From the IMG/VR virus record IMGVR_UViG_3300025674_000014: a DNA stretch of 64,000 bases. One strand, 5' to 3'. A program made the translations under genes and the position numbers. Origin of the DNA: a virus. Lineage: Duplodnaviria; Caudoviricetes. Within the stretch, counting starts at the first letter, position 1, and every line of letters starts with the position of its first letter. This document shows, in pieces, positions 21,142 to 25,970 of the stretch. The notes beneath the pieces are model-generated. The model was given only the letters and a program-made list of their open reading frames with translations, had not been told where the DNA came from and did no database searches.

Positions 21142-23592
21142 ATGAATGTAATTAAGAGAAATGGACGGAAAGCAGCTTTTGATGAAAGTAAAATCAAAGC
21201 GTGTATTGAACGAGCTTGCGAAGGACTAGATAATGTCGATCATGATCAAATACTTTACAATGCCCGAATCAAACTATTTGACGGGGTAAAGACATCAGAC
21301 ATTGACAAATCATTAATTAAGTCAGCTAGAGCATTGATTGAACAAGAACCTCTGTATAAAAAGGTAGCAGCGCGACTACTTCACAAGACAATTGTTAAGG
21401 AAGTGTTTCAAGAAAGTGCCGATCAAGATGCATACGAGTTACAATATCGTAAAACGTTTATTGTTAACATGAAAGCTCTAATCAAGTACGGGCTTGTATC
21501 AAAAGAGCTACGTAAATTTGATCTTACCGAACTATCTAACTATCTTAAACTCGAAAGAGATGATAAGTTTGAGTATCTTGGCTTACAAACAATTTATGAC
21601 CGGTATCTTTTGCATATCGATCAAAAGAGGTATGAAACACCTCAAGCATTTTGGATGAGAGTTGCAATGGGGCTTGCAATCAAAGAGGAGAATAAAACAG
21701 AATGGGCGAAAAAGTTCTACGATGTCTTATCTACATTTACATTCATGTCATCGACGCCTACATTGTTTAATTCGGGTTGTGTGCATAACCAACTCTCATC
21801 CTGTTTCCTTTCAACCTTTGAAGATAGCATAGATGGTATCTTTGATGGTTTACATCAAGAGGCTTTGAAGAGTAAATACGCTGGTGGGCTTGGTATGGAC
21901 CTAACTCCATTCAGACCAGCTGGTAATCATATCAGAGGTACTAACGGTCTATCGCAAGGGGCTGTTTATTTCTGGAAGATTTATAATGACATGCTAGTAG
22001 CAGTTAACCAAGGTGGTAAACGTAAGGGTGCTGGATGTGGTTATCTTGAGTCTTGGCATGGTGAGATTAACGAATTTCTTGAACTAAAGAAAAACACAGG
22101 TGATGAACGTAAACGTACACATGATATGAATACGGCCAATTGGATTCCTGACTTGTTTATGAAGCAAGTTAAGAAGAATAGTGATTGGTATTTGTTCAGC
22201 CCATATGAATGTCCGAAACTTCACGAAAGCTGGGGTGAAGAGTTCGAAAATGAGTATGCAGAATGTGTTAAAAAGGGCAAAGCTGGTGAGCTCAAGACGT
22301 TCAAGAAGGTAGATGCGAAGGAACTTTGGAAGAAGATGCTCCGAATGATCTTCGAAACGGGTCACCCGTGGATTACATTCAAAGATCCTTCGAATCTACG
22401 TTACAGTAATCAACATGAAGGTGTTGTTCATAGTTCTAACCTTTGTACCGAAATTTTACTTCATACAAAACCAAGTACATACAAGGAAGATGGTAGCCGT
22501 AAGGTGAAAGAGTATGGTGAAACGGCTGTATGTAACTTAGGTAGTATTAATTTACGTGAACACATAGTACAAAAAGATATAAACTACCACAAGTTACAGA
22601 GTACAATTGAAATTGCTATTCGAATGTTGGATAATGTTATCGATATTAACTTTTACCCAACAGAAGAGGCTAGAAACTCTAATACAAAACACAGACCTAT
22701 TGGTTTAGGTTCAATGGGCTGGCATGATATGTTTTACTATCTTGATCTCAACATGGATTCCGATGAAGCTATCGAGTTATCTGGTAAGCTTTACGAGTTT
22801 ATTTCATATCATGCTATCTTGACCAGTTCTAAACTATCAAAAGAACGTGGAAGTTATTCAACATACAGTGGGTCACTATGGGATAAAGGTTTGCTACCTG
22901 TAGATACCTATAAAAAACTGTGTGAATACCGTGGCAGAGAGTTTGATGCGGTAGAAACCCTTGATTGGTCAGTGGTTAGAAACCATATTAAACGTCATGG
23001 TATGCGTAATTCTAATACAATGGCTATTGCTCCTACCGCAACTATTAGTAGTATTGTTGGGTGTGCCCAAAGTATTGAACCGTATTACAATAATATCTTT
23101 GTTTACAGTACGTTATCAGGTGATTTTACTATGATCAACGATGCGTTTATCAGAGATATGAAAGCTATCGGTTCTTGGAATATAGAAGCGTTAGAAAATC
23201 TTAAAGCATGTAACGGAGATTTGACGCTCTATGAGTTTCCTAAGGGGGTAAGTAGAGAAGATAAGTTACGGTTAAAAGATAAGTATAAAACAGCTTTCCA
23301 ACAGGATCAACTTAAATTGATCTCTGCTGCAGCAGCAAGACAAGTATGGATTGACCAAGGTCAAAGCTTGAATTTATACAACGATCAAACGTCACTTAAA
23401 ATACTAAACGATATGTATATGCATGCTTGGGAAGTAGGGTTAAAAACAACATACTACTTACGTAATAAAGGTGCAAGTCAGATTGAAAAAAGTACGGTTA
23501 AAACAGTAAAGAAAGAAGAAGTTACTGCAGCTCAAGAAAGTACAGTAGTTGCATGTAGTATTGATAATCCAGATTGTGAATCATGTCAGTAA
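21142..23592 (+). CDS. nrdA: class I ribonucleotide reductase alpha subunit
   Basis: N-terminal ATP cone, SSCFL, SNLCTEI, VCNLGS, APTATIS, TTYYLR and C-terminal CESC. Confidence 0.95.
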   Translation: MNVIKRNGRKAAFDESKIKACIERACEGLDNVDHDQILYNARIKLFDGVKTSDIDKSLIKSARALIEQEPLYKKVAARLLHKTIVKEVFQESADQDAYELQYRKTFIVNMKALIKYGLVSKELRKFDLTELSNYLKLERDDKFEYLGLQTIYDRYLLHIDQKRYETPQAFWMRVAMGLAIKEENKTEWAKKFYDVLSTFTFMSSTPTLFNSGCVHNQLSSCFLSTFEDSIDGIFDGLHQEALKSKYAGGLGMDLTPFRPAGNHIRGTNGLSQGAVYFWKIYNDMLVAVNQGGKRKGAGCGYLESWHGEINEFLELKKNTGDERKRTHDMNTANWIPDLFMKQVKKNSDWYLFSPYECPKLHESWGEEFENEYAECVKKGKAGELKTFKKVDAKELWKKMLRMIFETGHPWITFKDPSNLRYSNQHEGVVHSSNLCTEILLHTKPSTYKEDGSRKVKEYGETAVCNLGSINLREHIVQKDINYHKLQSTIEIAIRMLDNVIDINFYPTEEARNSNTKHRPIGLGSMGWHDMFYYLDLNMDSDEAIELSGKLYEFISYHAILTSSKLSKERGSYSTYSGSLWDKGLLPVDTYKKLCEYRGREFDAVETLDWSVVRNHIKRHGMRNSNTMAIAPTATISSIVGCAQSIEPYYNNIFVYSTLSGDFTMINDAFIRDMKAIGSWNIEALENLKACNGDLTLYEFPKGVSREDKLRLKDKYKTAFQQDQLKLISAAAARQVWIDQGQSLNLYNDQTSLKILNDMYMHAWEVGLKTTYYLRNKGASQIEKSTVKTVKKEEVTAAQESTVVACSIDNPDCESCQ

Positions 23593-23801
23593 GATTATCC
23601 ACAGATCAGTTAAATTTATTAACTGAAGATGAATTAAATCTAGTCCTTTATGTTGTTAATCAGCATATGGGACTAGATCCCGTATTTATCAAATCTATTA
23701 AGAAGAAAAAAATTCATGAAACTTTTCTTAACATAGAAAACACGCTATCTCCAACCGGAAGAGATGTGTTTGAAAATTTATCAAAAAAAATCTTCTTGTG
23801 A
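23583..23801 (+). CDS. hypothetical protein
   Basis: 72-aa ORF between nrdA and nrdB. Confidence 0.55.
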   Translation: MSVRLSTDQLNLLTEDELNLVLYVVNQHMGLDPVFIKSIKKKKIHETFLNIENTLSPTGRDVFENLSKKIFL

Positions 23802-23832
23802 TATTACGCTGAGTATATATAATTATTTTTAT

Positions 23833-24831
23833 ATGGCAAAGACGGGTCAAATTCTTTCAAACGATTCAGCAGGTGTAAATCAAATTCTACCACATGTAAA
23901 TAAATGGGCATGGGATCTTTACAAGACAGGTAAACGTAATAATTGGGATCCAGAAGAGATTCCAATGACAAGAGATATACAAAATTGGAATAGTGATTTA
24001 CTTACTGATGAAGAAAAACATGTAGCTAAACGTACTCTTGGTTTCTTTGCTGGTAGTGAAAGTCTTGTTGGTAATAATTTAGTAACATTATACAAATACA
24101 TTACAGACCCAGAATGTAGGCAGTATATGTCTCGTCAAATTTGGGAAGAATGTTTACATAACGATACAATTGTTCATATTTGTGATTCCCTTTCTTTAGA
24201 TATTGCAGAAGTGTATGAAGCATATAGCAATATTCCGTCAATTAAAGCTAAAGACGAATTCTTGATGAATGTTACCAGGGGTATTTCAAAAGATATTGAT
24301 GTTGATACATTTGAAGGTAAACAAGAATTATTAAAAGCAGCTTTCTTGTACTGGATTGTTTGTGAAGGTACATTTTTCTTCTCTGGTTTTGCTATGTTAC
24401 TTTCAATGAAGGATAAGTTACCTGGTATTGGTGAACAAATTGAATATACTCTTCGTGATGAAAGTAACCATATTAAGTTTGGTTCGACTCTTATTAACAA
24501 AATTAAGGAACAACACCCAGAAGTTTGGACAGAAGAGTTTGTAGAAGAGTTAACTGAAATTTTAATGGATGCGGTTGAGCTGGAAATTGCATATGCAAGA
24601 GATGTTTTACCTAATGGTATTTTAGGTCTTAATGCTGATATGTTTGTAGAGTACATGCAATATATTGGTAACCGAAGACTTGAAGGTGTTGGTATTGAAC
24701 ATCGATTTGAATCTGATCGTAATCCTTTTGACTTTTTATCTGAAGTACAAGACTTGTTAAAAGCTAAAAACTTTTTTGAAACTCGTGTTATTGAGTATCA
24801 ATCCAGTGGTGCTTTGGTGGATGATTTCTAA
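23833..24831 (+). CDS. nrdB: ribonucleotide reductase beta subunit with class Ic (R2c) signature
   Basis: NNWDP, FFAGSESLVGNN, EECLHNDTI, CEGTFFFSGF, RDESNH and NFFETRVIEYQ. Start placed at the ATG at 23833. Confidence 0.92.
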   Translation: MAKTGQILSNDSAGVNQILPHVNKWAWDLYKTGKRNNWDPEEIPMTRDIQNWNSDLLTDEEKHVAKRTLGFFAGSESLVGNNLVTLYKYITDPECRQYMSRQIWEECLHNDTIVHICDSLSLDIAEVYEAYSNIPSIKAKDEFLMNVTRGISKDIDVDTFEGKQELLKAAFLYWIVCEGTFFFSGFAMLLSMKDKLPGIGEQIEYTLRDESNHIKFGSTLINKIKEQHPEVWTEEFVEELTEILMDAVELEIAYARDVLPNGILGLNADMFVEYMQYIGNRRLEGVGIEHRFESDRNPFDFLSEVQDLLKAKNFFETRVIEYQSSGALVDDF

Positions 24832-24851
24832 TATCATCATATAATTTATAA

Positions 24852-25424
24852 ATGAACTTTATTACATATTCAGCCGGTAGAAAATTCTTTCTTGAAAGAT
24901 GTCATTTTTTGCAATATTATGACGAGTGGGCTTATGATTATACACATAATGATATTGTACCTTACTGGGATGAAAATAATTACTGGGATAAATTTCCTAT
25001 TAAGTTAGGTTTTGAATTTAAAAACACTATTTCATTACCTGGTAAAAATATTGTTGGTGGTATTGCTTATACTTTTGAAAATTACGAGTTACATATTAAG
25101 AGATTGTTTACTTGTAAACGATATAGACGCCAAGGTGTAGCTAAACAGCTATTAAAAGAAGCGTGGTCTACTGGTTACAATAATGATTGTAGTCGTATTA
25201 GAATGTGGTGTGATAAAGATGCAGTATCATTTTATACTAAGTTAGGGTTTTCATATCTCGGTACTAATAATAAAGGATATGCTTATGTTTATATGCCAAT
25301 GTTAAACGAAAGTATGACAGAATCATTAAATACAACAAAGGGTATTAATCCATGGAGACTTTTAATAGAACGTTCTATAAAAATACCGGATGAGGCAAAA
25401 GTATTTTCTCTGTTGCATGTATAA
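24852..25424 (+). CDS. GNAT-family acetyltransferase
   Basis: LFTCKRYRRQGVAKQLL and AVSFYTKLGF. Confidence 0.8.
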   Translation: MNFITYSAGRKFFLERCHFLQYYDEWAYDYTHNDIVPYWDENNYWDKFPIKLGFEFKNTISLPGKNIVGGIAYTFENYELHIKRLFTCKRYRRQGVAKQLLKEAWSTGYNNDCSRIRMWCDKDAVSFYTKLGFSYLGTNNKGYAYVYMPMLNESMTESLNTTKGINPWRLLIERSIKIPDEAKVFSLLHV

Positions 25425-25512
25425 TTTTGAAGGAGTATAAACATGTAAATAAAAGAGGGGTGGGTAGGTGGGATTTTTTTGATTTTTATGGGATAGTAGC
25501 TTAAATAATTTT

Positions 25513-25929
25513 ATGAGTAAATTATTAAGTGTTTTAGGAAGTCCGAGAGCGGGACGGTACAGCTCTGATCTATTAGATACCTTTTTCAACGATCCATTTT
25601 TTTCGTTAGGAAAATCCTCCTTTACGGACGATAAGGTAAGATTTAATCAACAAAATACCCAATTTACATGTGAAATTGATCTTCCTGGTGTAACTAAAGA
25701 GAACCTTAAAATGACAGTAGAAGGGGATCAAGTATATATCAACGCTTCTAGAAATATTACAACTAGTGGTGGTACAAAAGAAGAAAGTTATAACAGGTCG
25801 TTCGGTTTCGATACTAGAGTTTATGACGTAAATCAGTTAGATGCAACGTTAGAACATGGCGTACTTCGTATTGTAGTACCTTCAATTAAGAAGTCTAAGA
25901 AAGAAGTAAAAGAAATCGTAGTTAAGTAA
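25513..25929 (+). CDS. small heat shock protein (Hsp20)
   Basis: EIDLPGV and ATLEHGVLRIVVP (alpha-crystallin domain). Confidence 0.9.
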   Translation: MSKLLSVLGSPRAGRYSSDLLDTFFNDPFFSLGKSSFTDDKVRFNQQNTQFTCEIDLPGVTKENLKMTVEGDQVYINASRNITTSGGTKEESYNRSFGFDTRVYDVNQLDATLEHGVLRIVVPSIKKSKKEVKEIVVK

Positions 25930-25941
25930 AATTATTCGTAT

Positions 25942-25970
25942 GAGCGGTCACTTCGGTGGCCGCTTTTTTT
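25942..25970 (+). terminator. intrinsic terminator
   Basis: AGCGGTCAC-TTCG-GTGGCCGCT followed by a T-run. Confidence 0.85.

Follow-up and report, generated by a model that had tools for sequence, protein, structure and literature searches.

A probable class Ic-like ribonucleotide reductase beta subunit with isoleucine at the radical-tyrosine position in an uncultured aquatic T4-like phage

The stretch of viral DNA analysed here (64,000 nucleotides (nt), hereafter the window; IMG/VR record IMGVR_UViG_3300025674_000014) encodes both subunits of a class I ribonucleotide reductase (RNR): the alpha subunit, NrdA, and the beta subunit, NrdB. The nrdB product has Glu at the first metal-ligand position and Ile at the position of the radical Tyr. 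The explanation that best accounts for these and the other features described below is that the protein is an R2c-type (class Ic-like) beta that works with an NrdAz-like alpha, and we hold this explanation with good confidence. Class Ic has been known since 2004–2007. To our knowledge, work on Tyr-free class I RNRs has been limited to very few proteins, in essence that of Chlamydia and a single R2c from an actinobacterium.

The nrdA-nrdB pair and the functional residues of NrdB

The two genes and the functional positions of NrdB are given below with their Chlamydia trachomatis equivalents; "the clade" denotes the viral lineage described in the following section.

21142..23592, + strand: nrdA, class I RNR alpha, 816 amino acids (aa); Pfam PF03477, PF00317 and PF02867 (E 2e-177)
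23833..24831, + strand: nrdB, probable R2c-type (class Ic-like) RNR beta, 332 aa; PF00268 (E 5e-74), C. trachomatis R2c 1SYY/4D8F (E 1e-103)
Within nrdB: W38, equivalent to Chlamydia W51
24058..24060, + strand: Glu76 (GAA), first metal ligand, Asp in class Ia; equivalent to Chlamydia E89, in FFAGSESLV
24148..24159, + strand: Glu106-x-x-His109, first ExxH ligand pair; equivalent to Chlamydia E120/H123, both invariant in the clade
24160..24162, + strand: Asn110, clade-specific in the residue comparison, one turn before the radical-site position
24169..24171, + strand: Ile113 (ATT), radical-Tyr position; equivalent to Chlamydia F127, in EECLHNDTI
24361..24366, + strand: Cys177-Glu178; an invariant third carboxylate ligand (Glu178, Chlamydia E193) preceded by the clade-specific Cys177
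24445..24450, + strand: Tyr205-Thr206; Tyr205 is equivalent to Chlamydia Y222 and clade-invariant, Thr206 lies four residues before ligand Glu210
24460..24471, + strand: Glu210-x-x-His213, second ExxH ligand pair; equivalent to Chlamydia E227/H230, conserved
24796..24798, + strand: Tyr322, C-terminal radical-transfer Tyr; equivalent to Chlamydia Y338, invariant in all groups

The 332-aa NrdB is the translation of 23833–24828. Its start is placed at 23833 rather than at 23764, where a longer open reading frame (ORF) begins, because homologues of 330–335 aa cover 99–100% of the query. The ferritin-like R2 fold is present, as seen in the PF00268 match and in an AlphaFold2 model (predicted local distance difference test (pLDDT) 89.3; predicted template modelling score (pTM) 0.88) that matches R2c at a template modelling (TM) score of ~0.9. 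The top fold matches of this model are the Chlamydia Mn/Fe NrdB crystal structures (TM 0.87–0.91, root-mean-square deviation (rmsd) 1.1–1.4 Å, 48% identity); class Ia and Id betas match it at TM 0.7–0.8, with 20–27% identity. When NrdB is compared with all PDB sequences using HMMER, the best matches are C. trachomatis R2c entries 1SYY (E 1.3e-103) and 4D8F (~1e-103), together with another Phe-bearing R2c, 6Y2N (E 8e-99), and the following match reaches only 1e-35.

In the HMMER alignment to 1SYY, the column of Glu76 holds the Glu of FFSTAESLV and that of Ile113 the Phe of EEAVHTHTF, with no gap from the His ligand to Ile113. Ile113 is equated with Chlamydia position 127 because the Tyr of the F127Y mutant entry 2ANI occupies exactly the Ile113 column. 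An earlier, sequence-only reading of this DNA had proposed Glu at the first metal-ligand position (codon 24058–24060) and Ile at the radical-Tyr position (codon 24169–24171), citing both Chlamydia motifs; the two assignments stand, and the motifs as cited are correct. The C-terminal FFETRVIEYQ, also pointed out in that reading, is identical in phage NrdB and Chlamydia R2c. Beside Glu76, the complete E/H/E/E/H set (E106, H109, E178, E210, and H213) aligns with the Chlamydia ligands and is invariant in the clade. The Trp/Tyr electron-relay residues (W38 and Tyr322) are retained, and Tyr322 is followed by an acidic, aromatic alpha-binding tail that ends in DDF. A Tyr aligning at the radical site was looked for, as this would have spoken against a class Ic-type protein; Ile113 is found there, no Tyr lies near the radical site of NrdB, and position 115 (Chlamydia Y129) is His. 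The class Ic signature claimed for the gene is thus borne out in its ligand-1 Glu, full set of ligands, redox-inert site residue, and pathway Tyr, as well as in the Chlamydia Mn/Fe NrdB being the closest solved relative.

The Chlamydia residue numbers used here are those of the literature, and the alignment offsets reproduce each of them for the functional residues. Ile113 corresponds to E. coli Y122 and Tyr322 to E. coli Y356; Phe182 and Phe186, both conserved, occupy the F208 and F212 positions. By offset, Thr206 falls at E. coli I234, one of the known wall residues of the Tyr122 pocket. Helix offsets, together with the known E. coli and Chlamydia structures, suggest by analogy that Asn110, Cys177, and Thr206 line the radical-site pocket.

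Conservation in a viral Ile/Val clade

Conservation was assessed in two sets of relatives: the 120 nearest metagenome proteins (68–92% identity) in a set of 5.8 billion proteins, which with the query make 121 sequences, and the viral loci from an IMG/VR scan, for which 107 viral stretches were returned and 80 kept (57–99% identity). Glu76 is present in 121/121 close proteins, and position 113 is either Ile (93, query counted) or Val (28). All 80 viral loci likewise have Glu at ligand 1; their radical site is Val in 57 and Ile in 23, and neither Phe nor Tyr occurs at this site in any of the 80. This pattern of Glu76 with Ile or Val at position 113 is not due to chance, because it is uniform over the 121 close proteins and the 80 viral loci at 57–99% identity. 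In the wider family, sampled by 150 representatives, a ligand-1 Glu is combined with a Phe, Val, Ile, or Leu in the radical-site column and an Asp with a Tyr, with few exceptions.

The Ile113 type is not a rare oddity. In the sequence-only reading, Ile had been regarded as a less usual residue; within this lineage it is not unusual, as Ile/Val is universal in a large viral clade and the same Glu + Ile/Val type is carried by the 80 viral relatives in IMG/VR.

For a comparison of individual residues, 201 viral-clade sequences were set against 16 Glu+Phe and 32 Asp+Tyr sequences. Position 113 is Ile in 116 and Val in 85 of the viral-clade rows. Three further positions are invariant in the clade. 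Asn110 is present in 201/201 rows, as well as in 6/6 deeper Ile/Val representatives, whereas the Glu+Phe and Asp+Tyr groups have other residues there, Thr and Ser among them. Cys177 (201/201) is replaced by Met, Leu, or Phe in the other groups, and Thr206 (201/201) by Ile/Val in 30+2 of the 32 Asp+Tyr rows and in 15/16 Glu+Phe rows. Position 115 varies within the clade, being Tyr in 153/201 members and His or Thr in 48/201.

In a maximum-likelihood tree of 81 rows (query, viral loci, representatives, and cellular sequences), the query, all viral loci, and six representatives form one clade that contains only Glu+Ile and Glu+Val proteins (Shimodaira–Hasegawa-like approximate likelihood-ratio test (SH-aLRT) 96). 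Ile and Val have replaced each other repeatedly within this clade, with at least five changes forced by well-supported branches. The nearest named cellular relatives are all Glu+Phe: Parachlamydiales at 50% identity, and metagenome-assembled genomes (MAGs) of Phycisphaeraceae and Chloroflexota at 45–46%. The scan for cellular relatives used near-exact peptide patterns, and only five were found. In the phylogeny, which had been suggested as a check, the gene lies inside the Glu+Ile/Val clade, and an approximately unbiased (AU) test does not reject joining the viral and cellular Glu+Phe clades (p 0.43). A common origin of the viral clade with cellular R2c is possible, being neither shown nor rejected.

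A viral lineage of this kind has already been flagged. A bioRxiv preprint of February 2026 on the GOV 2.0 ocean viromes describes a viral clade nearest NrdAz, with betas that lack the Tyr and have Ile or Val, under the name "subclass Ic-like" (PMC12918982). This clade comprises 269 sequences, or 1.44% of RNR-bearing viral populations, and is anti-correlated with predicted iron; according to the same preprint, no member has been biochemically characterised (PMC12918982). The phage gene appears to belong to the clade, judged by the features described there. For a specialist, it is a further member rather than a surprise. What is added here is that the whole clade has the ligand-1 Glu and all relay residues (the preprint appears to report only the missing Tyr), the fold match to Mn/Fe structures, the invariant Asn/Cys/Thr pocket, the status of sole beta in complete genomes (see below), and the finding that T4-like phages of freshwater also belong to the clade.

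Phages in the curated collection are more distant. INPHARED, a collection of phage genomes, contains no record with >44% identity to NrdB, and the nearest real phages in it, P. putida phages vB_PpuM-SKa-4 and relatives, are Asp+Tyr. Four further INPHARED matches were checked, and Glu+Phe was found only in a hot-spring Aquificae virus: the NrdB of the Aquificae Joseph's Coat Spring virus (BK013346.1, 301–1215) has Glu and Phe, a class Ic-type signature, at 31.5% identity to the query. The top INPHARED match, "Acinetobacter phage MD-2021a" (CAKLQH020000007.1), has rstA, a LysR regulator, and PhzF-family and hcpC-like genes near nrdAB; it looks like a bacterial chromosome despite its phage label, and its NrdB is Asp+Tyr.

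Three kinds of unusual relatives were observed in the wider protein set. Many NrdB relatives of 610–685 aa (P0124, P0128, P0129, P0131, P0133–P0135, P0137, P0138, and others) match the query in two stretches, with breaks near query residues ~91–116 or ~211, adjoining the helices that carry the metal ligands; an intein or some other kind of interruption may be present in their nrdB genes. Five proteins (P0142, P0168, P0172, P0195, and P0214) have Glu at ligand 1 yet keep the Tyr, an intermediate signature that might inform the origin of Tyr-free betas. In P0151, P0157, P0166, P0176, P0187, P0203, P0246, and others, several metal ligands have been lost (e.g., S/G/V/Q for E/E/E/H), and these ligand-poor R2-like relatives are presumably non-catalytic or repurposed ferritin-like proteins.

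Partner subunit, cofactor, and alternative explanations

The product of nrdA has one N-terminal ATP-cone, a catalytic barrel, and a Cys-rich C-terminal tail, CSIDNPDCESCQ. The motifs NLCTEI, SSCFL, and TTYYLR are readable in its translation, so that the catalytic Cys, Asn, and Glu motifs and the TTYY pair are present. The best solved NrdA relative is that of P. aeruginosa (5IM3; E 5e-249), which ranks above the human, yeast, and E. coli alphas. P. aeruginosa NrdA belongs to NrdAz, which also holds the Chlamydia enzyme (PMC9669993) and is the RNRdb group containing class Ic (PMC9669993; PMC6370689). Judged by this closest solved relative, the phage alpha is likely to be NrdAz-like. In 77/80 viral loci, nrdA lies directly 5' of nrdB on the same strand.

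Four complete related viral genomes (185–225 kb, CheckV 96–100%, two with terminal repeats) stand in for the phage's own genome. Each encodes exactly one PF00268 protein and one NrdAz-like NrdA of 818–840 aa; in two of the four (L088 and L089), the sole beta was read as the Ile/Asn/Cys/Thr type. Thioredoxin is encoded in 3/4, and neither NrdD nor NrdI was found in any of the four. From its sequence and that of its relatives, NrdB is probably the functional radical-generating subunit of an aerobic class I RNR of the phage, and the only one.

For the phage beta, we infer bound metals, O2 activation chemistry, and activity along the following lines. The four-helix bundle would bind two metal ions via Glu76, Glu106, His109, Glu178, Glu210, and His213, and O2 would oxidise the di-metal site. 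Because position 113 is Ile and not Tyr, the oxidising equivalent would then stay on the metal cluster instead of being passed to a tyrosyl radical; that the oxidant is stored on metal, with no tyrosyl radical, we consider very probable. The cluster would most likely be the one established for C. trachomatis, an Mn(IV)/Fe(III) cofactor whose Mn occupies site 1 (PMC8463856); by analogy with that enzyme, our confidence in Mn/Fe specifically is moderate. During turnover, the hole would pass reversibly via Trp38 and Tyr322 into alpha, to the TTYY pair and then to the NLCTEI cysteine. With regard to the residue at the radical site, RNRdb assigns NrdBz with Phe, Leu, or Val there to subclass Ic (PMC6370689), and Leu, Ile, and Val substitutions in R2c were listed by Hogbom (2010), as cited in PMC3824934; Ile/Val at this site is regarded as atypical in the preprint (PMC12918982). 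Tolerance of NO and other radical scavengers, which had been raised as a possible benefit of such an RNR, is speculation; hydroxyurea still reduces the Chlamydia cofactor or intercepts the pathway during turnover (PMC8463856).

Several points weigh against the assignment to an R2c-type Mn/Fe enzyme. The viral clade (SH-aLRT 96) stands apart from the named cellular Glu+Phe clade (SH-aLRT 97), in a tree with an unresolved backbone. Tyr-bearing NrdBz proteins, at 41–44% identity to the query, are little below cellular R2c at 45–50%. The pocket is unlike that of Chlamydia at the invariant positions Asn110, Cys177, and Thr206, and therefore the cofactor could be tuned differently or the choice of metal be another. 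Mis-metallation is a known property of the R2c scaffold, which takes either metal in either site in vitro (PMC8463856), and no protein of the Ile/Val clade has a known metal content or activity (PMC12918982).

These points leave room for two related explanations. The viral Ile/Val lineage might be a distinct class I subclass, in which the pocket and the small aliphatic residue alter either the metal need (for instance to Mn alone, or to an Mn/Fe site assembled in another way) or how the oxidant is gated by proton coupling; we regard this as doubtful, and if true it could reflect that large aquatic phages have adapted to hosts poor in iron. Also unlikely is that the same fold and Tyr-free logic are retained with another cofactor, either Mn2 (like the Mn(IV)/Mn(III) of class Id) or high-valent Fe2, the Asn110/Cys177/Thr206 pocket setting the metal and the proteins forming a biochemical subclass of their own. 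Such a change of cofactor would fit pocket residues that are unlike those of both the Glu+Phe and the Asp+Tyr groups, as well as the separate position of the clade in the tree and the permissive scaffold; the preprint, too, keeps the clade apart as "Ic-like" and gives no simple trace-metal pattern (PMC12918982). It is harder to reconcile with 48% identity and 1.1–1.4 Å rmsd to an enzyme proven to use Mn/Fe, and with first-sphere ligands identical to those of Chlamydia. Class Id betas match much more remotely (E ~1e-12, 21–23% identity) and keep the Tyr, and an NrdI-like activator was not found in the four complete related genomes. Class Id itself (NrdBi, Mn2) was rejected as an identity for the phage protein on the same match values, obtained for the F. 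johnsoniae and L. blandensis betas, and on the lack of a Tyr at the site.

There is only a slim chance that the phage beta instead keeps a protein radical on another residue, such as a Tyr at position 115, Tyr205, or Cys177. The majority of the clade does have a Tyr at position 115, like Chlamydia Y129, and both Tyr205 and Cys177, the latter beside a ligand, are invariant; but position 115 is His in the phage, and with His or Thr in 48/201 members it is not essential. According to established literature, the Chlamydia equivalent of Tyr205 serves only cofactor activation, and no class I RNR is known with the radical stored on a Cys of beta.

A beta-like subunit with a regulatory or other non-catalytic role, comparable to Rnr4 of yeast or R2_e2 of apicomplexans and dependent on a Tyr-bearing phage or host beta, or an R2lox-type oxidase with no part in nucleotide reduction, would account for the absent radical Tyr and has parallels in the ligand-poor R2-like proteins among distant relatives, but either role is very unlikely, because NrdB is the sole beta in complete genomes, nrdA adjoins it, and the catalytic motifs of NrdA are kept. 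A non-catalytic beta-prime subunit was rejected on the full set of six ligands, the C-terminal Tyr and the alpha-binding tail, and on the single PF00268 gene of the complete relatives. R2lox was rejected on the presence of Tyr322, a residue position without Tyr in R2lox (PMC3824934), on the adjoining nrdA, and on a match to R2lox 7QBK of only E 3e-13.

If the cofactor of the R2c-type phage beta is Mn/Fe, each beta would need half the iron of a class Ia beta, which would bear on the replication of large phages in iron-poor waters. The lineage is widespread, with >100 IMG/VR contigs and, according to the preprint, 269 ocean viral populations (PMC12918982). It offers a natural experiment on the role of the radical-site residue and its pocket for a metal-stored oxidant, and the phage NrdB is a ready target for cofactor biochemistry. 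For annotation, the gene shows that a "class Ia" label on the nrdB of a large aquatic myophage may conceal a Tyr-free enzyme.

Source virus, gene block, and comparison with known systems

The window is part of the genome of a large T4-like myovirus. Among its genes are those for the large terminase, the tail sheath, the major head protein (of gp23 type), and a baseplate protein of T4. The major head protein is only ~33% identical to its cyanomyophage counterparts. The stretch across nrdA and nrdB is found nearly word-for-word in aquatic and freshwater metagenomes of seven studies and is also partly matched in pond, lagoon, and marine samples. The source is an uncultured aquatic T4-like phage.

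Within the window, nrdA, a 72-aa ORF, nrdB, a GNAT gene, and an Hsp20 gene form a co-directional block, which is flanked by structural gene blocks and has a strong terminator-like hairpin at its end. Besides nrdA and nrdB, the following features were recorded.

23583..23801, + strand: small 72-aa ORF between nrdA and nrdB; overlaps the nrdA stop, no Pfam match
23796..23823, + strand: candidate sigma-70-like pair, TTGTGA, 16 nt spacer, TATAAT, from a consensus scan; ends 10 nt before the nrdB start
24852..25424, + strand: GNAT acetyltransferase gene, directly 3' of nrdB; Pfam PF13673, PF13508, and PF00583
25513..25929, + strand: Hsp20-family small heat-shock protein gene; Pfam PF00011 (E 5e-12)
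25942..25965, + strand: terminator-like hairpin, 10-bp stem with 6 GC pairs, then TTTTT

The frame of the 72-aa ORF is open in the nine closest viral loci only, with 53–85% identity vs. 89–99% for NrdB, and the ORF looks like a fast-evolving small gene. The promoter candidate ahead of nrdB is weak evidence for a promoter there, as the region contains 32 promoter-like sites vs. 27 ± 6 in shuffles, which is no excess. For the motif TATAAATA, 11 copies are seen in the window vs. ~15 expected, which is no enrichment, and none lies near nrdAB. Homologues of the GNAT and Hsp20 genes are found 3' of nrdB in 14/80 and 10/80 viral loci, respectively, and the hairpin at 25942–25965 probably closes the nrdA-nrdB-GNAT-hsp20 block.

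Metatranscriptome contigs of 150–450 nt from seawater, salt-marsh, and aquatic assemblies are 85–99% alike to parts of nrdA, the 3' end of nrdB, and hsp20 (window 21142–25850; runs X18–X20 and X22). They hint at in-situ transcription of relatives; the contigs may stem from relatives or from DNA carry-over, and we make no claim of expression for this phage.

Among known systems, the phage beta most closely resembles C. trachomatis R2c (1SYY, 4D8F/G, 4M1H/I), which has the Mn(IV)/Fe(III) cofactor. The two have in common the fold (TM ~0.9), the ligand set including its ligand-1 Glu, a Tyr-free radical site, the Trp/Tyr relay, and the FFETRVIEYQ motif. They differ in that the phage protein has Ile in place of Phe, Asn110/Cys177/Thr206 in place of Thr/Met/Ile, and His in place of Tyr129. 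The phage alpha has one ATP-cone, whereas the Chlamydia alpha has three (PMC9669993), and the phage system is viral rather than cellular.

The other cellular R2c proteins (Parachlamydiales, Phycisphaeraceae and Chloroflexota MAGs, and 6Y2N) are 45–50% identical to the phage protein and, like it, have the ligand-1 Glu, a redox-inert residue at the radical site, and the C-terminal Tyr, but all have Phe with a Thr/Met/Ile pocket and fall in a separate clade. Tyr-bearing NrdBz proteins of class Ia type (Acinetobacter; P. putida phages vB_PpuM-SKa-4 and relatives) are similar in identity (41–44%), in the nrdA-nrdB layout, and in their NrdAz-type alpha family; they differ in having Asp at ligand 1 and Tyr at the site, and because of these two residues they are ordinary tyrosyl-radical enzymes. 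The marine "Ic-like" clade of the preprint (PMC12918982) is like the phage system in its viral contigs, its alpha nearest NrdAz, and its Ile/Val beta, features also found in the 80 IMG/VR relatives; that set is marine, whereas the DNA of this phage is found mainly in freshwater and aquatic metagenomes.

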